The notes under the pieces: generated by a model | Told to the model about the DNA's origin: nothing | The model's input: the letters and a program-made list of their open reading frames with translations, nothing else | The model's database searches: none | From: an uncultured Eubacteriales bacterium | GTDB taxonomy: Bacteria > Bacillota > Clostridia > Christensenellales > Aristaeellaceae | Assembly (NCBI GenBank): GCA_900318145.1 | Contig: ONJM01000008.1 | Span: 19,388-83,387, forward strand | Length of the DNA stretch: 64,000 bases | Reading direction: 5' to 3' | Translations under genes and position numbers: made by a program | Shown: piece after piece, positions 17,274 through 34,478 of the stretch | Numbering within the stretch: position 1 is the first letter of the stretch | Layout of the letters: every line of letters starts with the position of its first letter

Positions 17274-17359
<86 letters not shown>

Positions 17360-23150: not shown

Positions 23151-24830
23151 TCAGACGTCGAGAATAATGGGCAGGATCATCGGATTCCGCTTGATCCTGT
23201 CAAAAATAAACTGATGCACCTCGTCCTTGATGATATTCTTCAGATCCGGCCAGTCCTCGCCCGCCAGGCTGCTGCTCGCCAGGATCTCGCGCACAAGGTT
23301 CTGGGTCTCGTCGATAATATCCTCGTTCTCCTTGACGTAGATGAAGCCGCGGCTGACAATGTCCGGCCCGCTGACGATCTTCTGTTCGTCGCGGTTGATG
23401 GCGATCGCCACGATCACCAGGCCGTCCTGACTCAGGTGCTTCCGGTCCCGCAGCACGACGTTCCCGACGTCGCCCACGCCCAGGCCGTCCACCAGCACGC
23501 CGCCCACCGGCACCTGCTCGCCCAGTGCCAGCACATCCTGGTTCATTTCGATCACCTGGCCCAGTTCCGGAATCACGATGTTCTGGCTCGGAATGCCCAT
23601 GGATTCCGCCAGAATCGCGTGCTGCCACATCATCCGGTATTCGCCGTGTACGGGAATGAAGTATTTCGGCCGGATCAGGGAATGCAGCAGCTTCAGCTCC
23701 TCCTGGCAGGCGTGGCCGGAAACGTGCACCTCCGCCATCGCGCTGTATACGACCTGCGCGCCCAGCCGGTACAGCTGGTTGATGACCCTGGAGATGAATT
23801 TTTCATTTCCGGGAATCGGCGTGGCCGAAATGATCACCATGTCGCTCTGTCGGATCTGGAGTTTCCGGTGTTCCGCGTATGCCATCCGCGTCAGGCCGGC
23901 CATGGGCTCGCCCTGGCTGCCGGTGGTCATCACCAGGATCTCGTTGTCCGGATACTGGTCCAGCACGTCCATATCGATGAGGTATCCCTCGGGAATCTGA
24001 AGCTCACCGATGCTCATCGCGACGCGGCTGACGTTCACCATGCTGCGCCCGATGAAACATACGCGCCGGCCGTACCGGATCGCGCTGTCGATGATCATCT
24101 GCATCCGGTGGATATTGCTGGCGAACATGGCGACGATCACACGGCCTTCCGCCTGCGCGAACATCTTCTCAAAGGTCTCGCCGACCTTCAGCTCGCTCAT
24201 CGTGTATCCGGACCGTTCCACGTTCGTGGATTCGCAGAGGAACGCCAGCACGCCCCTCTCCCCGTATCGGGCAAAGGTCTGCAGGTCCGTCACCTGCCCG
24301 TCGATGGGTGTATAGTCCACCTTGAAGTCGCCGCTGCAGATCACCGTGCCCGCCGGGCAGGTAATGGCAATGGCGCAGGCTCCCGCGATGGAATGGCTCA
24401 CATGAATGAACTGGCAGCTGAACTGCCCCAGCTGGACCGTGTCCCTGGGCTGGACTACATGCATCGGAATCCCTTCCACCCGGTACTCCTTCAGCTTCAG
24501 GTCCACCAGCGCCATCGTCAGTTTTGTCCCGTAGATATGGGCCGGCGCCTGTTTCAGGATGTATGGCGTCGCGCCGATATGGTCTTCGTGTCCGTGTGTG
24601 AAAAGATATCCGCGGATATGATCCCGTTTCCCCATCAGGTAGGTGATATCCGGAATTACCAGGTCGACGCCCAGCATATCCTCCTTCGGGAATACGCTGC
24701 CGCAGTCCACAATGACAATGTCGTCCTCATACTCGAAGACGTACATATTTTTTCCGATCTCGTCCACACCGCCGAGGGAAACAATTCGAAGCCGGCTGAT
24801 CTCCTTTTCCTTCTGAACTTTTGTGCTCAC
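23151..24830 (-). CDS. rnj: Ribonuclease J
   Basis: LGGVDEIGKNM, THGHEDHIG, TGSQGEPMA, HVSGHA, PVHGEYR. Confidence 0.96.
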   Translation of the reverse strand: MSTKVQKEKEISRLRIVSLGGVDEIGKNMYVFEYEDDIVIVDCGSVFPKEDMLGVDLVIPDITYLMGKRDHIRGYLFTHGHEDHIGATPYILKQAPAHIYGTKLTMALVDLKLKEYRVEGIPMHVVQPRDTVQLGQFSCQFIHVSHSIAGACAIAITCPAGTVICSGDFKVDYTPIDGQVTDLQTFARYGERGVLAFLCESTNVERSGYTMSELKVGETFEKMFAQAEGRVIVAMFASNIHRMQMIIDSAIRYGRRVCFIGRSMVNVSRVAMSIGELQIPEGYLIDMDVLDQYPDNEILVMTTGSQGEPMAGLTRMAYAEHRKLQIRQSDMVIISATPIPGNEKFISRVINQLYRLGAQVVYSAMAEVHVSGHACQEELKLLHSLIRPKYFIPVHGEYRMMWQHAILAESMGIPSQNIVIPELGQVIEMNQDVLALGEQVPVGGVLVDGLGVGDVGNVVLRDRKHLSQDGLVIVAIAINRDEQKIVSGPDIVSRGFIYVKENEDIIDETQNLVREILASSSLAGEDWPDLKNIIKDEVHQFIFDRIKRNPMILPIILDV

Positions 24831-25067
24831 TATTTTCGCCTTTCATCTGCACATGTACGACCGGGGAAGCACAGGTTTCCAATCCCGCGTTTTCCCGGGT
24901 CGCTCTATGAAACTTACACTTAATAGGAGTATAGCATGTTTTTCCTTTTTTCGCTACCCTGTTTCCCCGGGAAAATTGTTACGAAAAAATAAAATCAGAA
25001 AAAGGAGCGGCCGCTTTGAACCGCTCCTGAATTGCCTGGTGCTGCGCCGGGCGTTCGCCCGTCCGGC

Positions 25068-26288
25068 TCAGCCGTTTCCTTCGTCCTCCTCAAGGGAGTT
25101 TACCGGAACCCATACCCGCCGGTATTGTCCCCTGCTTCCGTCATAGTATTCAAACTGCGCGTACAGTCCTTCATATGCCCATACGGTTCCGGATGTTCCG
25201 GCCGGAATCTGGTCGTTGTACATGGAATAGCCGTATCCCGGCCCCCAGTACGGATAGACGGAACAGGTCAGCTTCGCGACCTCCTGCGGTTCCTCCGTCC
25301 GCACCATGTCCGCGCTCATCTCCAGCCGTTTCACGCCGGTGTAGACCCTGCGCTGCTCGTTCAGGTAGGTCAGCTCCACCTGGATCCACCAGATCCCGTT
25401 CTTGCTGTCGTACGCGGCGGAAAGGGCTCTGACCCACGTTCCCTGCTGGAAATAGGACCCCAGCTCCGTGTAGTCCGTTCCGGGGCCGGAACGGGTTGCC
25501 AGCCGTTCCTTTGTGAGCACCTGAATACCGGCGTTTGGATTGGCTGTCGGGCCCATCGTCGGCCGGGGCGTTGCGGTCGGAATCAGTGTCGGTGCCCAGG
25601 GCTGCGGCGTCGGTGTCCATACCGGATAGGGATAATACCCGCCGCCGTTGAAGATGTTCGGTCCGTACAGTTCCTCCGGCGTCGCCGACAGGAACACCAT
25701 ATCCGCGATCCGCATTTCGTACTTCTTGTTGCCTTCTCCCTGGTACCAGCCCTTGATGAACAGGTCCACCCGGGTCACGTTGTCGTACCGCATCGGCAGT
25801 GACAGCCGCTGGTATCCGTCAATCCAGTTCTGGTTGAACAGCGTGGTATCGATGGAATCCTGCAGTTTAAAGCGCGGAATCACATAAGCGGTATCCCCGC
25901 ACCAGACGGTCATATCCAGAATCATGATCCGGGCGTATTCGGTGTAATACTCAGAATCCCACCCGTTCCGGATCCACAGGTCCCGGATGCTCGCTCCGTT
26001 GAAATAGAAGGAGATATCCGGAATATCGTCCAGCGCCTCCGTATTCCAGCCCATAAAGCCCATGGACGTGCTCCAGTTGCCGTCCAGCGCGTACTGAATC
26101 CCCCAGCCGATCGGCGCACCGTTATGCTGCTGTACTTCCCAGTTGCTGTTGGGCATAACGCGGTCCAGCCAGATATTCACCGGAGCGACGGAATAGCCGG
26201 AATACGCTCCGTCCGCGCCGGCCGCGGAACATACGGAGCACAGGACGCAGAGCGCAGCCGCAATGCACAGAATCTTCCTGATCTTCAT
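25068..26288 (-). CDS. Secreted modular protein: discoidin/glycan-binding-like domain, Pro/Thr linker, SH3-like domains
   Basis: Start MKIRKIL (26288) with signal peptide; ALDGNWST...WIRNG; PTPTPQP linker; LATRSGPGTDY. Confidence 0.7.
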   Translation of the reverse strand: MKIRKILCIAAALCVLCSVCSAAGADGAYSGYSVAPVNIWLDRVMPNSNWEVQQHNGAPIGWGIQYALDGNWSTSMGFMGWNTEALDDIPDISFYFNGASIRDLWIRNGWDSEYYTEYARIMILDMTVWCGDTAYVIPRFKLQDSIDTTLFNQNWIDGYQRLSLPMRYDNVTRVDLFIKGWYQGEGNKKYEMRIADMVFLSATPEELYGPNIFNGGGYYPYPVWTPTPQPWAPTLIPTATPRPTMGPTANPNAGIQVLTKERLATRSGPGTDYTELGSYFQQGTWVRALSAAYDSKNGIWWIQVELTYLNEQRRVYTGVKRLEMSADMVRTEEPQEVAKLTCSVYPYWGPGYGYSMYNDQIPAGTSGTVWAYEGLYAQFEYYDGSRGQYRRVWVPVNSLEEDEGNG

Positions 26289-26368
26289 ATTTCTTCCCCC
26301 TTTGCCTATAAAACGGGAAAAACAGGCCTTCCCTTCCCGTCTTCCCTGAAAAACAATACGTTTTGATG

Positions 26369-26400
26369 TCTCCGTGCCATCCTGAACACGGCAAGGCATC
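26369..26400 (+). repeat. REP-like dispersed repeat, copy 4
   Basis: TCCGTGCCATCCTGAACACGGCAAGGCATC. Confidence 0.6.
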
Positions 26401-26416
26401 ACACCGGCCGCCGGCC

Positions 26417-28714
26417 TCACAGCAGCGCCCGCTGGATCTTCCCGCTCACGGTCTTGGGCAGCTCGTCCCGGAAAACAACGATCCGGGGATACTTGTACGG
26501 CGCGGTATGCTGCTTGACGTAGTTCTGGATTTCCTTCTTCAGTTCCTCCGTCGGTTCCGTTCCCTTCGTCAGCACGATGCTCGCCTTGACCACCTGGCCG
26601 CGCACCTCGTCCGGCGCGGCGCTGACACCGCACTCCAGCACATAGGGCAGCTCCATGATCACGCTCTCGATCTCGAACGGCCCGATCCGGTAGCCGCTGG
26701 ATTTGATCACGTCGTCCGCCCGGCCCACGTACCAGTAGAAGCCGTCCTCGTCGCACCATGCCAGATCGCCGGTATGGTACCAGCCGTCGTGCATAACCTC
26801 GTTCGTCTTTTCCTCGTCCCGGTAATACATCCGGAACAGGCCGATCGGAATGCCGTTGGAGATATCCACGCAGATCTCGCCTGTCGTACCGGCGGGCACA
26901 GGATTGCCTTCCGGACTCAGCAGCGCGACGTTGTAGATCGGCGCGACTTTGCCCATGGAACCAAGCTTGTGGTCCGCGCCGGCCAGGTTGCCGATGATCA
27001 TGGTACTCTCCGTCTGGCCGAAGCCTTCCATCACCTGCAGCCCGGTCTGCTTCTCGATCTGGCGGAAAACCTCCGGGTTCAGCGCTTCGCCGGCGCTGGA
27101 CGCATGGGTCACGGAACTCAGGTCGTATCTGCTCAGATCCTGCTTGATCAGCATCCGGTACATCGTGGGCGGCGCGCAGAAGGTGGTGATATGGTACTTC
27201 GCGAACAGCGGCAGGATATCCGCCGCGTCAAAGCGGTCAAAGTCGTATACGAAAATGGCGGCTTCGCACAGCCACTGGCCGTAGATCTTGCCCCATCCAG
27301 CCTTTGCCCATCCGGTGTCGGAAATCGTCAGGTGCAGCCCGTTCGGATTCACGCAGTGCCAGTACTTGGCGGTGTGCAGGTGTCCCAGGGGATGCTTGTA
27401 GCTGTGGGCGGCGATCTTCGGATAGCCCGTGGTGCCGGAGGTGAAATACATCAGCATCAGATCGTCGCCGCAGGGCGTTTCATCCGTCCGTTTGAAATGG
27501 GTGGAATACATCTGGTATTCCTCGTCGAAGTTTTTCCAGCCTTCCCGCTCCCCGTTCACGATCAGCTTCAGCTCCAGGCTCGGGGCGTTCTTCGCGGCCA
27601 GCTCCGCCTGGTGCGCGGTGTCCCCGTCCGCGGTGCAGATGATCGCCTTCACGCCGGCGGCGTTGAAGCGGTATTCAAAGTCGTGCTCCTGCAGCTGGGC
27701 CACAGCCGGGATCGCGACGGCGCCGATCTTCTCCAGGGCCAGGATCGCGAACCAGAACTGGTAGTGCCGTTTCAGCACCAGCATCACCCGGTCGCCCTTT
27801 TTGATGCCCAGGGATTTGAAATAGTTCGCGCAGCGGTTGGACGCGCGCTTCATATCGTTGAAGGTGAACCGGTGCTCGTTCTTTTCCCGGTCCAGGTGCA
27901 GCATCGCGAGCTTGTTCGGCACTTCCTCCGCGATCGCGTCGATAACGTCGAAGGCGAAGTTGAACTTCTCGGTGTTCTTGAAAGTGATTTTCACGGGCGT
28001 GCCGTTCTCATCCTTTTCCACATCCGCGTAGCGGTGCCACACGCGGGTGCGGCCCTGCTCCGCCGGGAATTCCTGCAGGGCTGTGCCGGGCATGGCCTTC
28101 TCCGGCGTCAGCTCGGGAATCGGCGCGCCGGTGGGATTCAGGACAATCGCGTAGAACAGGCAGTCCTTGCCGCCCACGGCGATCATCCCGTGAGGCGTGC
28201 CGGAATCGTAGTAGATGCTGTCCCCGGGATTCAGGATGCTGATGTGTTCCCCCACCTGCACCTTCAGGCTTCCGTCGATAACGATATCGCACTCCTGCCC
28301 CTCGTGGGTGGTCAGCTTAATGTCTTCCTTCTCCGCTTCCGCGCTGTAGGCCGCCTGTACGTACAGAGGCTCCGCGATCCGGTTCCGGAAGGAGGCCGCC
28401 ATGTTATAGTAGACCATGTCGTGCGCTTCCTCGATCCGCTGCCCTTCGCCCTTCCGGGTTACGGTAAAGGAGTTCAGGTTCGGGCTGGAACCTTCGATGA
28501 TGTCCCCGACGTCGACGCCGAACGCCAGCGCGCAGCGGTACAGGAACGCGAAGTTCAGGTCGCTCCGGCCCATTTCGCATTCAATATATTCCTGTTCGCT
28601 GACGCCCGTCTTTGTCGCCATCTCCGCGATGGTGAAGTTCTCGATCTCCCGCAGTTCGCGGATCCGGTGCGCCATCTCCTGAATCTTGTAGTTCAGTCCG
28701 GTCATCTGTGCCAT
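26417..28714 (-). CDS. XRE-HTH/cupin regulator fused to medium/branched-chain acyl-CoA synthetase (AAE_MA/ACSM type)
   Basis: Residues ~1-190: HTH (RIRELR...IAEMA.KTGVS) and cupin (HEGQE...GDSIYYDSGTPH). Then YFTSGTTGYPK, SDTGWAK, EGFGQTE, YHTGD, GRADD, KTVSGKIQR. Confidence 0.9.
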   Translation of the reverse strand: MAQMTGLNYKIQEMAHRIRELREIENFTIAEMATKTGVSEQEYIECEMGRSDLNFAFLYRCALAFGVDVGDIIEGSSPNLNSFTVTRKGEGQRIEEAHDMVYYNMAASFRNRIAEPLYVQAAYSAEAEKEDIKLTTHEGQECDIVIDGSLKVQVGEHISILNPGDSIYYDSGTPHGMIAVGGKDCLFYAIVLNPTGAPIPELTPEKAMPGTALQEFPAEQGRTRVWHRYADVEKDENGTPVKITFKNTEKFNFAFDVIDAIAEEVPNKLAMLHLDREKNEHRFTFNDMKRASNRCANYFKSLGIKKGDRVMLVLKRHYQFWFAILALEKIGAVAIPAVAQLQEHDFEYRFNAAGVKAIICTADGDTAHQAELAAKNAPSLELKLIVNGEREGWKNFDEEYQMYSTHFKRTDETPCGDDLMLMYFTSGTTGYPKIAAHSYKHPLGHLHTAKYWHCVNPNGLHLTISDTGWAKAGWGKIYGQWLCEAAIFVYDFDRFDAADILPLFAKYHITTFCAPPTMYRMLIKQDLSRYDLSSVTHASSAGEALNPEVFRQIEKQTGLQVMEGFGQTESTMIIGNLAGADHKLGSMGKVAPIYNVALLSPEGNPVPAGTTGEICVDISNGIPIGLFRMYYRDEEKTNEVMHDGWYHTGDLAWCDEDGFYWYVGRADDVIKSSGYRIGPFEIESVIMELPYVLECGVSAAPDEVRGQVVKASIVLTKGTEPTEELKKEIQNYVKQHTAPYKYPRIVVFRDELPKTVSGKIQRALL

Positions 28715-28853
28715 GGTCTTTCTCCCTTTCTCTGTCCGCGGCAGAATGCTCAGTCCGCAATTTCTTCAGGCCGTTGGGATCCGGAGGCTTCCAAAGGGCG
28801 CTTATACCGCCGGCTTCGGAAAAACTGATCCCGGAAAGTCCTTTGGGCTGACG

Positions 28854-29117
28854 AAAAAAGCCCGTCTCAAATTGCTTTGAGACGAGCGTATCAGCATAAT
28901 ACACCCGCGGTACCACTCAAATTGCGGCGTTCCGCCGCCCCTTCAGGCTCCCGTGAAGCCCTTTTGCCCTTACGCGGCTGATTCGGGAAGGTTCTACTTG
29001 CTTTCGCTTTCTTCCTTCCGGCTCCGGAGCTACAGCCATCGGTCCCGTCCCGCGGCTCGCACCGTCCGCCGCGTCTCTGTTCTCAGGGATTCCGCCGCCC
29101 TCTCCTTCAAGGCCTTT
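28854..29117 (-). ncRNA. T-box riboswitch (transcription antitermination leader), probable Val (GUA) specifier
   Basis: Minus strand: K-turn GA motif, AG bulge ACAGAGA, GGTGCGA loop, stem II GGAAGG..AGTAGAA..CCTTCC, T-box AATTTGAGTGGTACCGCG (28906-28923), terminator GCTCGTCTCAAA..TTTGAGACGGGC-T6. Confidence 0.92.
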
Positions 29118-29123
29118 ATCGGG

Positions 29124-29152
29124 AGTTTACGCTTTTCCCCGCCGCTTGTCAA
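29124..29152 (-). promoter_or_regulatory. sigma-A promoter of T-box leader
   Basis: TTGACA-17 bp-TAAACT ending just upstream of stem I. Confidence 0.8.
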
Positions 29153-29261: not shown

Positions 29262-30086
29262 TCAGCTCAGCTTTCTGTACTCCCGCGGGGACAGGCCTGT
29301 GGCTTTTTTAAACGCGTCCCCGAAGTAATTGCTGTCGCTGAATCCGCATCGGTCCGCAATCTGTGTCACGGTCAGCCCTGAATTCAGCAGCAGATCGCAG
29401 GCTTGCCGGATCCGGTACTGAATCAGATATTCCCGGACGCCGAAACCTGTCTCCTGATGAAAAACCCGGGAGAGATGCGACGGACTGACCGCAAAATGGG
29501 CAGCCACCTCTGTCAGGGTAATCTGTTCTCCCGCATGCTCGCAGAGATATGCCGCCACTTCCCGCATACGGCTGTGGGATATGTCCTCGTTTCCGTCGTT
29601 TTCTTCCTGTCCGTCGCGGTATCGGTGCAGGGAAATCAGCAGTTCAGCCAGAAGCGTCATGCAAAGGCTTCTTCCAAGGGCAGGCTGGTTCTCAAATTCA
29701 TACAGCATCCGGTTTACCTGCAGCAGAATCGCTTCCTGGCGCTGAACCGGAGCTTTTATTTTTCCTGCCCGGAATTCCGTTTCCGCCACTTTCGCTTCCA
29801 GAAACGCGTCAATCTTTTTAGCGGTATCCGTGGAAAAGGAGATAACGTACTTTGTATTCTGCCCATGGGAAGTAAAATCCGTCTTATGCAGCGTTCCGGC
29901 GGGAATCAGAGCAAAGTCCCCGGTTTGCAGCCGGTATGTTCTCTGTCCGATAAATACACTGCAGCGGCCTTCCGCGATATAATAAAGCTCATGGTATCTG
30001 TGAAAGCGTTCGTTCTCTTCGCGGGCCTGGCCGATCTGGCTTTCTTTCAGGATTTTGAAGTCAACTGTCCGGTGTTTTCGCTCCAT
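29262..30086 (-). CDS. AraC family transcriptional regulator (cupin + HTH)
   Basis: FHRYHELYYI..G cupin; C-terminal IADRCGFSDSNYF..AFKK.TGLSPREYR. Confidence 0.92.
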   Translation of the reverse strand: MERKHRTVDFKILKESQIGQAREENERFHRYHELYYIAEGRCSVFIGQRTYRLQTGDFALIPAGTLHKTDFTSHGQNTKYVISFSTDTAKKIDAFLEAKVAETEFRAGKIKAPVQRQEAILLQVNRMLYEFENQPALGRSLCMTLLAELLISLHRYRDGQEENDGNEDISHSRMREVAAYLCEHAGEQITLTEVAAHFAVSPSHLSRVFHQETGFGVREYLIQYRIRQACDLLLNSGLTVTQIADRCGFSDSNYFGDAFKKATGLSPREYRKLS

Positions 30087-30331
30087 GGTTTTCCTTCCCC
30101 TTTCCGTGCCCTGTTTTGCCTTTTCCCGGCTGCGGATCACCTCCCGCACGGGATATTATACCTCTGATTCGCTTTCCGGAACAACAATAAATCTGTAGTT
30201 TTTAAGAATTATGGCATACTTTCAGTAGATTTTCATTTATTTTTGCTGTATGATCTCTGGCGTTCCCGGAAATACCGGTTATCCTCTCCGGGAACAGAAT
30301 TATTCCGGCAGTAAAGGAGATTTGAAATAAG

Positions 30332-30505
30332 ATGAACACCATTATAAAGAATTCGGAAAACAACGCCAGTGTCTGGAGCCGCTTCTATGAAATGGTCCGG
30401 AAAACGGCCGCGCGTTCTTCCCGCAGCGATCTGGAGTTTTTCAGCTACAGTACCCTGCCCGCGCTGCTGACCATGCAGTCCGATTTCAGATCCGAACAGC
30501 TCTGA
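30332..30505 (+). CDS. Putative 57-aa small protein (below the ORF-track cutoff)
   Basis: AAAGGAG SD, ATG...TGA, upstream TATGAT -10-like element, own terminator. Confidence 0.55.
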   Translation: MNTIIKNSENNASVWSRFYEMVRKTAARSSRSDLEFFSYSTLPALLTMQSDFRSEQL

Positions 30506-30543
30506 GTCAGCATTCGGAATCAAGTAATTTCCAGGCTGTTTCG

Positions 30544-30583
30544 AAAAAAGGGGCGCTTTTCATTGCGAAAAGCGCTCCTTTTT
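30544..30583. terminator. Bidirectional intrinsic terminator
   Basis: AAAAAAGGGGCGCTTTTC-attgc-GAAAAGCGCTCCTTTTT. Confidence 0.8.
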
Positions 30584-30665
30584 CATGGATAATCCTCGCG
30601 AAGCCATTGCGGAATCCGTCAGCGGGCAGGAAAAAGCAGACTGCGGCGTCCTGTCCGGTCCTCCC

Positions 30666-33044
30666 TTACTCGATCCAGAGGATCCGCAGGTCGGATTCCC
30701 GCAGTTCCCGGTCCGCTGTCAGTTCTTTTTTCTCCCCGGGATACAGTGAAATCCAGTTGTCGGAAAACCTGGCGTCGCCTGCCTGCAGCTCTACGCCTGT
30801 GCAGAAGGTGTCCGCCTCCAGGAGAATCTTCGTCCCCGCGCAGGAAACCCTGATTTCCGGCTTTTCAAAAGGAAAGTATTTCGGCAGGGTGTACAGCTCC
30901 TCGCATTCGCTGACCGTACTGCCGTCCTCATCCCGCAGCACGCACTGCACGATTTTCATTTCCTCCCCGTTCTCCGGCAGGATCGTTCCGGCGCGTATGC
31001 TGCTCATCGCCGGGCATCGGACATCCAGCAGGCATTCCCGGATCCGTCTGCCCTTCTCGTCGCGGACAATACAGACTGCCTTTCCCCGGAAAGCTTCCCT
31101 GCGCTCGTTGGCCACCCATACGGAATAACCGTTCTCCTCCGGCCGGAGCGTCACAGCTGCCGGCGCGAAAAAGCGCCTGGACGCGTACTGGAGCGCTTTC
31201 CATCTTCCGGCCGAATCAATCCCGGCCCAGCTTGCCACCGGCCAGCAGTCGTTGATCTGCCAGTAAATCGCGCCCATGCAGCGGCCCCGGTTCCTCCGCC
31301 AGTGCTCCACCCCGGCCCGCACCGCTTCCGCCTGCAGCCATTGACTCGCGTGAACCAGCTTCTCCATCGAGAACGGATACCGGAGCGTCTGGCTCAGGTA
31401 GTACAGCGTTGTCGCGTTCCCGGACCGGCACTTCTGGTGGCTTTCCATGGTCCTGGAAAAAGGATTCATCTCCCGCTCCTCATGTACAAATGTCCGCAGC
31501 GTATCCATGCAGGGGAAGGACTCAAAGCCGAACTCCGAGCAGAACCGCGGATACCGCTTCGTAAAGTCTGAGAACGGTCTCCGTCCGTGCCAGACGGACC
31601 AGTCATGCACGTCTCCCCGGTCCAGGCTGTTCGGGTCGTCAAACCCGCCGCCGGAAGAGGGAGAGGACGGCCAGTAAAAGCTGTCCGGCGCTTCCCGCGC
31701 GCTGACCTCCTTCAGCAGGTGCTCAAACTGTTCCAGATAATCCTGCTTCAGGCCGTCCGGCTGGTTCTTTACGCCGCCCCAGTCCATCCAGGCCGTTTCC
31801 ATTTCATTGTTCCCACAGATCAGCCCCAGGGAGGCATGATGGCGGATCCGGCGCAGATTGTCCTCTGCCTCCCGGACAATGTTTTCCCGGAACGCGTCCG
31901 TCAGCTTGTAGGTATTGCAGGCAAACATCAGATCCTGCCAGACAACCAGACCCATTTCGTCGCACAGGTCGTAGAAATCATCGTTCGGATAGATGCCCCC
32001 GCCCCATACCCGGATTGTGTTGAAGTGGCAGTCCCTGCAGTCCCGCAGCAGCCGCCTGGTTTTTTCCCGGTTCATCCGCGTCAGCAGGCTGTCCTCCGGA
32101 ATGTAGTCCCCGCCCATGGCAAAGAACTCCGTTCCGTTGCAGCACAGGGCAAAGCTTTCGCCCCATTCGTCCTTTTTCCGGGAAACGGTCATGGTGCGCA
32201 GGCCCAGCCGGAGCGTCTTCACGTCCTCTGTTTTTCCGCCGGTCAGAGCTTCGACCTTCAGGGTATACAGCGGCTGTTCCCCCAGCCCGTTCGGCCACCA
32301 CAGCCGCGGGTGTTCCGCCCGCAGGCGCAGTACCCCGCCGGATTCCCCGCCTGCTTCCGAGACCGCCCTGCCTTCCGGGTCTGTCAGTTCCGCGCGGATC
32401 TGCTCCGCGCCGGTCTGTACGCGGATCTCCAGGTCCGCATGGTCCGGGCCGTGCTCCTGGTGCACCCGGATGTCCTCCAGCCGGATTTTGTAGAATTCAA
32501 TCCGGACCTCCCGCCAGATGCCCGCGTCCGGAAGTCTCGGACCCCAGTCCCATCCGAACATGTAGTGCGCCTTCCGCAGAAATCCGGTTCCCTTCAGCTC
32601 GCTGCCGCCGTCATAGGATACTTCCGGGTTTTCCCGCGCTGCTTTCCCGACGTAATCCATCGCCGGGTCAAAGAAAACGCGCAGGCTGTTTTCCCCGCTG
32701 CGGAGCGCCTGCTTCACCGGAATCCGCCACGTCCGGTGCATATTGTCTGTCCGGGCAATCGTCCGCCCGTTCAGTTCCACCGCGGCCAGGGTGTCCAGCC
32801 CTTCGAACACCAGGTCCGCGAAGGGGTTTTCCAGCGCTTCATCCGAAACCGTGAACGTACGCTGAAAACACCACCTGCGCCGGGTTTCCGCGCAGGCGGC
32901 GAATTCATTCAGTCCGTCAAACGGATCCGGAAGTACTCCGTGGTCCAGCAGCGTCCGCAGCACGCTTCCCGGCACTTCGGCCGGAAAGCTGCGTCCGTCC
33001 TCCCCGGTCATCTCCCAGGTTCCGCACAGATTCAGTTTTTTCAT
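30666..33044 (-). CDS. GH2 beta-mannosidase
   Basis: RKAHYMFGWDWGP, IRVWGGG, WQDLMFAC, CGNNE, SEFGFES, YWQINDCWP; no signal peptide. Confidence 0.93.
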   Translation of the reverse strand: MKKLNLCGTWEMTGEDGRSFPAEVPGSVLRTLLDHGVLPDPFDGLNEFAACAETRRRWCFQRTFTVSDEALENPFADLVFEGLDTLAAVELNGRTIARTDNMHRTWRIPVKQALRSGENSLRVFFDPAMDYVGKAARENPEVSYDGGSELKGTGFLRKAHYMFGWDWGPRLPDAGIWREVRIEFYKIRLEDIRVHQEHGPDHADLEIRVQTGAEQIRAELTDPEGRAVSEAGGESGGVLRLRAEHPRLWWPNGLGEQPLYTLKVEALTGGKTEDVKTLRLGLRTMTVSRKKDEWGESFALCCNGTEFFAMGGDYIPEDSLLTRMNREKTRRLLRDCRDCHFNTIRVWGGGIYPNDDFYDLCDEMGLVVWQDLMFACNTYKLTDAFRENIVREAEDNLRRIRHHASLGLICGNNEMETAWMDWGGVKNQPDGLKQDYLEQFEHLLKEVSAREAPDSFYWPSSPSSGGGFDDPNSLDRGDVHDWSVWHGRRPFSDFTKRYPRFCSEFGFESFPCMDTLRTFVHEEREMNPFSRTMESHQKCRSGNATTLYYLSQTLRYPFSMEKLVHASQWLQAEAVRAGVEHWRRNRGRCMGAIYWQINDCWPVASWAGIDSAGRWKALQYASRRFFAPAAVTLRPEENGYSVWVANERREAFRGKAVCIVRDEKGRRIRECLLDVRCPAMSSIRAGTILPENGEEMKIVQCVLRDEDGSTVSECEELYTLPKYFPFEKPEIRVSCAGTKILLEADTFCTGVELQAGDARFSDNWISLYPGEKKELTADRELRESDLRILWIE

Positions 33045-33106
33045 ATGGCTGATTCCTCTCTGTCGGAGAAATTCCTGACAAAGCAATCGGTTCCGTCCGG
33101 TGCCGG

Positions 33107-34279
33107 TTACCGCTTCATGTATTCCAGGTTCCTGCGGATCAGTTCCGCCCGCTGGCGCACGCAGTCCGGACTGCGCAGAGGATCCTCCGGCGTGTTGAAA
33201 ACATAGTCCTTCAGCCGTTCCACGTCCGTCTCCGCCACATGCATCCGGGTATCGGAGGACGCGTAGTAGATGTACACTTTTCCGTCGTCATCCGCGATGG
33301 CGCCGTTGGTAAACACCACGTTGCTGACGTCGCCGGTCCGTTCCCGGCCCATCGGCCCCAGCAGCATTCCGGAAGGCTCCGCGATAAGCTTCGAGGGATC
33401 CTGCAGGTCTGTCGCGAAGGCGTACAGCACATACCGCAGCCCCGCCGCCGTATTCCGCACGCCGTGGGCAATGTGAATCCATCCCCAGTCGGTTCTGATC
33501 GGCACCGCGCCGGCGCCATTCTTCGCTTCCGTAATCGTATGGTATTTCCGGCGGGAGATGATCTTTTCCTCCCCGATCACCGGATGCGTGATGTCCGCGC
33601 ACAGCCCGAAGCCAATGCCACCGCCGCTTCCCGTCTCTATGAAGTCATCCATCGGCCGGGTATAGAACGCGTATTGCCCGTCCACAAATTCCGGATGCAG
33701 CACCACGTTCCGCTGCTGCGGGGAATTCAGTGTCACAAGGTTCGGCAGCCGTTCCCACGTTTCAAGGTCCTTCGTCCGGACGATCCCGGCCGCGGCCACC
33801 GCGGCTGACAGGTCCGCGTTGTCCGGATCCTTGCTCTCCGAGCAGAATACGCCGTAGATCCATCCATCCGCGTGCTGCGTCAGCCGCATGTCATAGACGT
33901 TGGTTTCCGCTTTTTCCGTATCCGGCAGAATAACCGGATAGTCCCGGAACCGGAAGCCTTCCGTGGGCCGGTCGCTCTCAGCCACCGCAAAGAAGCTTTT
34001 CCGGTCCATGCCTTCCACCCGGACCACCAGGCAGTATTTGTTCCCCAGTTTGATGGCGCCGCTGTTCAGCGTAGCGTTCACGCCCAGCCGCTGCATCATG
34101 AAGGGGTTCGACTCCGGGTTTGCGTCATACATCCAGAACGGCGGAATATGCTCCCGGGTCAGCACCGGGTTCCGGTACCGGGTAAACAACCCGTTGTAGA
34201 ATCGCTCGTCCGCGGGATTCGGCCTTGCCAGCAGCCGCTCATAGGATTCCATCAGGGAATCAAAACTTCTGCTTCTCAT
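33107..34279 (-). CDS. 4-O-beta-D-mannosyl-D-glucose phosphorylase (GH130_1)
   Basis: [42 protein letters not shown]; start MRSRSF at 34279. Confidence 0.92.
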
Positions 34280-34309
34280 TTTGTTTCTCTCCAAAAATGG
34301 TTTCTTTAT

Positions 34310-34478
34310 GTGCCCGAAGGGGATCCTAAGGGGCGCAGGCCACAGTGCGGCCTGCATTGGTTCCGACCGGAAAGCCCCCTTAGCAGCTCTCCATTGCTTC
34401 ACCAAAAGCGACAGTGCCCGAAGGGGATCCTAAGGGGGCGACCGGAAAGCCCCCTTAGTAATTCTGCACTGCTTCATC
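34310..34478. repeat. Tandem hairpin repeat (2 copies): GTGCCCGAAGGGGATCCTAAGGGG(G)CG...ACCGGAAAGCCCCCTTAG
   Basis: Copies start at 34310 and 34414; copy 1 carries an extra GCAGGCC..GGCCTGC hairpin. Confidence 0.85.

Follow-up and report, generated by a model that had tools for sequence, protein, structure and literature searches.

The window, by which we mean the whole 64,000-nucleotide stretch of DNA analyzed here, belongs to contig ONJM01000008.1 of an uncultured Eubacteriales bacterium (family Aristaeellaceae) and carries on its minus strand a gene, P0001, that encodes a predicted acyl-coenzyme A (CoA) synthetase and lies behind a T-box leader. A sequence-only reading of this DNA had placed a promoter, a complete T-box leader and a terminator upstream of an acyl-CoA synthetase, and each of these was recovered there on the minus strand (Table 1). 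The description of the gene product needed amendment: a ligase core is indeed present, but P0001 is not a plain ligase, since residues 1 to approximately 200 consist of an XRE-type helix-turn-helix (HTH) and a cupin domain. A terminator-like hairpin follows the stop codon, and the leader and ligase (hereafter the Val unit, after the specifier described below) therefore form a monocistronic unit in the window's genome. The next recognizable gene on the ligase strand is that for RNase J at 24830, and the approximately 1.5 kb between the ligase stop and RNase J (window 24830-26417) held no Pfam-recognizable open reading frame (ORF) on either strand.

We compared P0001 to known families and structures. 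Its core motifs TSGTTG-PK, GQTE, and SGKI were invariant in 9 homologs. The top PDB match was 3ETC, which is MacsMa (599 bits over residues 248-763), and the proposed likeness to a Methanosarcina acetivorans-type enzyme was upheld in that MacsMa is the closest solved relative. In the alignment to 3ETC, Gly566 (in FGQTE) and Trp452 (in KYW) of P0001 fell on the pocket hallmarks of MacsMa. MacsMa prefers 2-methylbutyrate, and in its pocket a Gly replaces the Trp of Acs and Trp259 serves instead; in the first half-reaction the enzyme adenylates C3-C8 acids (PMC10455477). The top NCBIfam model for P0001 was MbcS (443.5 bits), an enzyme that selectively activates 2-methylbutyrate and isobutyrate, with acetate excluded (PMC10026030). 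The P0001 ortholog of a cultured close relative, Aristaeella hokkaidonensis, was 95% identical. Judged by sequence, P0001 is a Macs/MbcS-type, adenosine monophosphate (AMP)-forming ligase of the short branched-chain acyl-CoA synthetase kind.

The leader was compared across 80 orthologous loci from genome_contigs (of at least 593 matches), all full-length and with 69-96% identity; 74 of these loci had enough upstream DNA for the purpose. Orthologous leaders are likewise preceded by TTGACA/TATAAT-like boxes. The base of Stem I was read as GGC-CUUGAA-GGAG ... CUCC-GGA-GCC, a UGA/GA K-turn, and the T-box core was near-invariant in 67 of the 74 upstream regions, approximately 100 nt ahead of the ATG. 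Stem I, when folded from the one sequence, gave no useful signal (z -0.52), and covariation was used in its place. Among 35 aligned ortholog leaders, RNAalifold found compensatory changes in 25 of 50 predicted pairs, and the covarying elements were the distal Stem I hairpin, Stem II, Stem III, and the terminator, whose pairs were retained in the 35 aligned orthologs. The base and closing helices of Stem I were 99% paired in orthologs, with compensatory changes. RNAalifold also joined GCUUCCGAGCC to the T-box region by a long-range pairing; this pairing had zero compensatory changes and was rejected as an artefact. The 5' strand of the terminator is common to the antiterminator. When the 3' strand of the terminator was omitted, the antiterminator folded with a 7-nt UGGUACC bulge at -18.3 kcal/mol, and when that strand was included (fold of 28926-28850), the terminator prevailed at -24.6 kcal/mol. 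The predicted architecture of the leader places it among class I transcriptional T-box riboswitches, with tRNA-Val as its specific ligand, and we are close to certain that it would function as a valine T-box by transcription attenuation. RNA-library contigs spanning the ORF and the conserved leader were short, 92-99% identical, and mostly from related organisms; they reveal neither starts and ends nor attenuation, and therefore say nothing on expression in this organism.

The triplet GUA (Val), one purine ahead of the closing helix of the specifier loop, had been proposed as the specifier, and the comparison with orthologs bears this out. GUA is read in the register of the Rfam alignment for RF00230, and the aligned ortholog leaders keep Val codons, GUA in most, GUC in 5, and GUG in 1, with a purine always next. 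A codon plus one purine directly before the closing helix is the "+0" specifier frame of the T-box database TBDB, which GUA fits (PMC7778990). The closing helix was 100% paired in orthologs, with variants GAAG/CUUC, GGAG/CUCC, GAAA/UUUC, GGAA/UUCC and, elsewhere, GAUG/CAUC, and compensatory changes were present at 2 of its 4 pairs. When the 3' strand was slid by 1-3 columns as a control, pairing fell to 23-56%. This 4-bp closing helix, which covaries, fixes the specifier register. Specifiers were also called for 242 T-box-led genes of the ligase family, taken from the genome_contigs loci, 150 genomes of the same order, and metagenome_contigs, with a caller that needs a pyrimidine 3' strand pairing with the K-turn-adjacent purine strand. 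The unambiguous calls for P0001-like genes were 84 GUA, 3 GUC, and 1 GUG. The tRNA-Val(UAC) of the same genome (G000:C61:367276-367351) ends in A73-CCA, and for that reason the UGGU bulge of the leader pairs with its 3' end; the claim that the bulge suits an A discriminator is likewise correct for the host tRNA.

Table 1. Features of the T-box-controlled ligase unit, with positions counted from the first nucleotide of the window
Feature	Position	Strand	Details and basis
Sigma-70-type promoter	29124..29152	-	TTGACA 29152-29147, 17-nt spacer, TAAACT 29129-29124; consensus scan, 10/12 matches
T-box leader	28875..29119	-	RF00230, 64.5 bits, E 1e-13, full model 1-219
Parts of the leader			Stem I (K-turn, specifier loop, AGAGA bulge, GGUGCGA distal loop), Stem II, Stem III, antiterminator
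AGAGA bulge	29078-29074	-	Distal motif of Stem I, with the GGUGCGA loop
Specifier codon GUA (Val)	29031..29033	-	Purine G29030 next, then CUCC 29029-29026, paired with GGAG 29105-29102
T-box core AAUUUGAGUGGUACCGCGGG	28904..28923	-	UGGU bulge 28915-28912, complement of the tRNA 3' end ACCA
Intrinsic terminator	28854..28887	-	12-bp stem 28887-28860, 4-nt loop, U6 28859-28854; terminator scan
Ribosome-binding site AAGGGAG	28722..28728	-	7 nt ahead of the ATG; read from the sequence
ORF P0001, HTH-cupin-acyl-CoA synthetase fusion	26417..28714	-	765 amino acids, ATG 28714, stop at 26417; translation, Pfam
XRE-type HTH, residues 17-73	28496..28666	-	PF12844 3.7e-8, PF01381
Cupin_2 domain, residues 131-190	28145..28324	-	PF07883 4e-12
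Adenylate-forming ligase core, Macs/MbcS type	26438..27934	-	AMP-binding, residues 261-630 (PF00501 1.3e-62); AMP-binding_C, residues 681-759 (PF13193 6e-21)
Terminator-like hairpin 3' of the stop codon	26315..26333	-	Terminator scan

The same genome holds a paralog of the ligase, P0122 (756 amino acids, 61% identical, with the same four domains), behind a T-box at G000:C25:31622-31860 that has an AUC (Ile) specifier followed by C and CUUC. Unambiguous calls for P0122-like genes in the 242-gene set were 111 AUC and 1 CUC (Leu). Leaders that received no call were truncated, ambiguous, or had helix variants; read by eye, they had the same codons as their own clade, with zero crossovers. A midpoint-rooted maximum-likelihood tree of 190 full-length proteins split exactly into a Val clade of 79 and an Ile clade of 111, and specifier and enzyme stayed matched through these clades. 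In 69 loci the units were in tandem, and in each of these the Ile unit preceded the Val unit. The sole Leu (CUC) specifier was on an Ile-clade HTH-cupin-ligase on the minus strand of locus L108 (G092:C6:203-5443), where VorD and VorB follow; that genome has an IlvD match.

Thirteen alignment positions were at least 90% conserved within each clade yet distinct between the clades, 11 of them in residues 11-133 and the other 2 (470 and 485) in the ligase core. At residue 470 the Val clade has Ala, and the Ile clade and MacsMa have Gly; at residue 485 the Val clade has Ala and the Ile clade has Gly. A steric reading would fit, in that the clade to which the larger acid is assigned has the smaller residue. 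The concentration of clade-separating residues in the N-terminal module suggests that this module may recognize something branch-specific. It is possible, at somewhat less than even odds, that the HTH-cupin module is a branch-specific small-molecule sensor, one that distinguishes the valine branch from the isoleucine branch, with the amino acid, 2-oxoacid, or acyl-CoA as a possible source of feedback. If this is true, the ligase would be under two controls, one by tRNA charging at the RNA level and one by a metabolite at the protein level.

The arrangement of the module and the ligase differed among relatives. In other families of the order, a separate gene of 182-211 amino acids encodes the HTH-cupin module and immediately precedes that for the ligase, again behind an Ile T-box, and ligase-only forms were also found behind Ile or Val (GUC) T-boxes. 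The constant pairing is that of a branched-chain T-box with a Macs-type ligase, and the HTH-cupin module is a frequent accessory. Split and ligase-only forms, all behind Ile or Val T-boxes, are those of loci L208, L209, L210, L214, and L223 and of loci L215, L216, and L218.

The Val-unit loci from genome_contigs were searched with the Vor and IlvE proteins of the window's own genome. In approximately 50 of the 80 loci, the ligase was followed on the same strand by a gene for a 227-amino-acid P-loop protein (weak CbiA match) and then by VorD, VorB, VorA, and VorC, and in some of those loci IlvE lay between the ligase and VorD. The VorDBAC proteins of these loci were 48-79% identical to those of the window's genome, and further metagenome loci were linked too. 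A homolog of the P-loop nucleoside triphosphatase (34% identity) was found in the window's genome at G000:C57:304709-305314, unlinked to the ligase or Vor.

The genome of the window itself encodes the enzymes that would be needed downstream of the ligase. VorDBAC, a 2-oxoacid:ferredoxin oxidoreductase, was present at G000:C35:27998-30573, with VorB scoring 562 bits to model NF005507 (cutoff 399), and an IlvE-type aminotransferase (Aminotran_4) was present at C11:22375-23097. The classical genes ilvB, ilvC, and ilvD were not found in this 88%-complete genome: the acetolactate synthase model for IlvB reached 37 bits against a cutoff of 538, KARI_N for IlvC gave one chance-level match of 21.8 bits, and there was zero ILVD_EDD match for IlvD. 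Of the 14 sampled genomes with tandem units in the order (completeness 84-100%), 13 likewise had no ILVD_EDD match, and a match was present in 74 of 151 overall; this comparison is descriptive and carries no statistical test, because the genomes are related.

We propose the following mechanism. Transcription would start at the promoter near 29124, and the GUA specifier of Stem I would read the UAC anticodon of tRNA-Val. The free ACCA end of uncharged tRNA-Val would engage the UGGU bulge and stabilize the antiterminator, with read-through into the gene; with charged tRNA-Val, the terminator at 28887-28854 would form and transcription would stop. P0001 would most likely convert scavenged isobutyrate to isobutyryl-CoA, VorDBAC would convert isobutyryl-CoA to 2-oxoisovalerate by reductive carboxylation, and the IlvE-type aminotransferase would convert 2-oxoisovalerate to valine. 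The paralog unit behind the Ile (AUC) T-box would likewise lead from 2-methylbutyrate to isoleucine. The probability that valine is made by way of Vor and IlvE from isobutyrate that the ligase has activated is put at roughly 0.78; this estimate draws on the enzyme family, the matched specifiers, the genes' operon linkage among relatives, and the failure to find the classical pathway. The Ile-specifier paralog and the linkage of the Val unit to VorDBAC and IlvE in relatives are stronger evidence than the genome searches for vor and ilvBCD that the sequence-only reading had called for. That uncharged tRNA-Val would induce isobutyrate activation for valine is well supported by comparative genomics; the RNA anatomy, the specifier, the enzyme family, the pathway genes found or missing, and the linkage in relatives are shown directly, and the substrate preference of the ligase, the direction of flux, and the role of the HTH-cupin module are what we infer.

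Several observations weigh against the isobutyrate-to-valine reading. The Rfam gathering value for RF00230 is 93 bits and the leader, at 64.5 bits, misses it; the leader is therefore absent from a default Rfam scan and appears with an E-value threshold. Even so, 4 of the 7 T-boxes in the window's genome are below the gathering value, the thrS leader included. The canonical S-turn (loop E), AGUA/GAA, was not found in the specifier loop, where the S-turn is degenerate, the 5' side reading AGGG and the 3' side GGCU (AG(G/U)N and UUU in orthologs). With respect to the enzyme, P0001 does not reach the MbcS equivalog cutoff of 850 bits and is not an equivalog, and the role reported for MbcS is to supply primers for branched-chain fatty-acid synthesis, not amino acids (PMC10026030). 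Neither vorDBAC nor ilvE is linked to the ligase in the window's genome, and three different contigs carry the Ile unit, the Val unit, and vor, unlike the tandem operon of relatives. None of the 7 T-boxes found in the genome is ahead of vorDBAC or ilvE, so that only the activation step would be tRNA-gated here. Because the assembly is 88% complete, the failure to find ilvBCD may partly reflect gaps, and the classical branch survives in part, as a LeuA-like gene behind a Leu T-box demonstrates. Finally, the split between the Val and Ile clades is one ancient duplication, and thus a single event rather than many independent ones.

The alternatives were weighed against the same evidence. The protein could be mainly a transcription factor, in which the HTH-cupin module binds DNA, the ligase domain acts as a BirA-like sensor, and the T-box sets the level of the regulator. 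The intact XRE-HTH and cupin have the architecture of a PuuR-like repressor, most of the clade-separating residues are in this module, and in some genomes the module is a separate gene just upstream of the ligase. However, ligase-only forms occur behind the same Ile and Val T-boxes, so the pairing of T-box and ligase works without the HTH-cupin module, and the core motifs of the ligase are all conserved. We consider a primarily regulatory protein unlikely.

A little less likely again is that the ligase supplies isobutyryl-CoA as a primer for branched-chain fatty acids, as MbcS does in Staphylococcus aureus. The top NCBIfam match is MbcS, with its fatty-acid primer role (PMC10026030), and the ligase is not linked to vor or ilvE in the window's genome. 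In contrast, control by uncharged tRNA-Val and tRNA-Ile would make no sense for lipid primers, the Val unit in most relatives is co-oriented with a directly following VorDBAC and sometimes IlvE, and searches of the genome recovered no ilvBCD. Use for lipid primers and use for valine could coexist.

It is very improbable that the ligase activates some other small acid, such as propionate or butyrate, for an unrelated purpose, with the T-box present by accident. MacsMa does adenylate a range of acids in its first half-reaction, C3 to C8 (PMC10455477), but the association of T-box and ligase is kept in hundreds of genomes of several families of Clostridia, with the specifier matched to the clade, and is linked to Vor and IlvE, which chance does not account for.

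Least probable of all is that the switch senses a tRNA other than tRNA-Val through the Leu (CUG) or Met (AUG) register that the sequence-only reading had kept as an alternative: CUG and GUA overlap by one base in the window and the specifier loop has no canonical S-turn motif, but the shifted triplet NUG varies across orthologs (CUG, UUG, AUG, CCG, CAG, GUG) and cannot be the specifier because these changes are non-synonymous, whereas the GUN triplet is Val throughout and the covarying closing helix sits directly after GUN and one purine in the standard +0 frame (PMC7778990).

The isobutyrate-to-valine system resembles several known ones in part. Class I T-boxes such as those of Bacillus subtilis tyrS, glyQS, ilv-leu, valS, and ileS have the same Stem I K-turn, specifier plus purine, AGAGA and GGUGNRA motifs, Stems II and III, and antiterminator with a UGGN bulge, the rival fold of an intrinsic terminator, and in them too the specifier and discriminator match the host tRNA. 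The leader in the window differs in its target, which is an acyl-CoA synthetase and not a tRNA synthetase, a classical biosynthetic gene, or a transporter, as well as in its score below the Rfam gathering threshold and its altered S-turn. MacsMa of M. acetivorans (3ETC) has the same pocket Gly (FGQTE) and alternate Trp; however, it has no HTH-cupin module and, being archaeal, no T-box, and it has Gly at the position of P0001 residue 470, where the window enzyme has Ala. MbcS of S. aureus (NF047394) is the best family for P0001 and takes isobutyrate and 2-methylbutyrate, but it feeds FabH for branched-chain fatty acids, has no reported T-box control, and has no N-terminal regulator-like module. 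The first 200 or so residues of P0001 match XRE-HTH plus cupin regulators (PuuR-type; 1Y9Q, an HTH_3 family member of Vibrio cholerae) in size and in the order of the domains. Unlike those regulators, the module is joined to an enzyme in one polypeptide or, in some relatives, lies in a gene just ahead of it, and its sequence resembles solved members only weakly (E 0.004).

The dependence of rumen and gut fibre degraders on isobutyrate, 2-methylbutyrate, and isovalerate has been recognized since the 1960s. Allison and co-workers reportedly established in the 1960s-70s that rumen anaerobes make Val, Ile, and Leu by reductive carboxylation of branched-chain volatile fatty acids. The chemistry predicted here is the same, from acid to acyl-CoA, to 2-oxoacid by a ferredoxin oxidoreductase, and to amino acid, and so is the rumen or gut habitat. 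That route is known by physiology and labelling, whereas the present analysis offers candidate genes for activation and a candidate control by tRNA sensing. In the literature that we searched, the activating enzyme and the regulation for branched-chain acids were without gene names. We likewise found no description of a T-box ahead of an acyl-CoA synthetase or a Vor operon, and an earlier listing in a comparative T-box survey is possible; the TBDB paper mentions no acyl-CoA synthetase or Vor targets (PMC7778990).

The candidate genes supplied by this analysis are the specifier-matched Val and Ile ligases, VorDBAC, and IlvE, and the control logic supplied is that of uncharged tRNA. If correct, the scheme would widen the T-box regulon beyond tRNA synthetase, biosynthesis, and transporter genes. 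The T-box-ligase units, in a genome without detected ilvBCD, could serve as a genomic marker for dependence on branched-chain acids. Such a marker would be relevant to ruminant nutrition, in which branched-chain volatile fatty acids are fed as supplements, and to metabolic models of uncultured gut Clostridia.

Further T-box and oxidoreductase loci were observed in the window's genome. The Leu T-box (CUG) heads the LeuA-like gene (475 amino acids, 290 bits against a cutoff of 532) at G000:C57:167333-171545 (L089:534-4745), next to which lies an 838-amino-acid fusion of a xylose-isomerase-like TIM barrel with a PRK12583/YngI-type acyl-CoA ligase. This locus may be the leucine arm of the same logic. 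Two alpha subunits of indolepyruvate:ferredoxin oxidoreductase (TIGR03336, 729 and 709 bits) were found at G000:C38:8481-11989 (L126:2482-5990) and G000:C35:55911-57728 (L127:3912-5729), one of them encoded directly downstream of a 565-amino-acid acyl-CoA ligase. Both are candidate enzymes for a route from aryl acids to aromatic amino acids by reductive carboxylation. On G000:C14, a thiamine pyrophosphate (TPP) riboswitch (L002:1273-1374, minus strand) stands back to back with a T-box (L002:1501-1737, plus strand) that heads a sodium:solute symporter-like gene; the specifier of this T-box can be read in either of two registers, UAC or ACC.

Upstream of the T-box unit, at window 29262-34405 on the minus strand, are genes for an AraC-family regulator, a GH2-family glycosidase (806 amino acids), and a GH130 mannoside phosphorylase-like protein, all unrelated to the unit. 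The sole Rfam match in the window at the gathering threshold was a tRNA-Leu(CAA) with a long variable arm, at window 17277-17359 on the minus strand.

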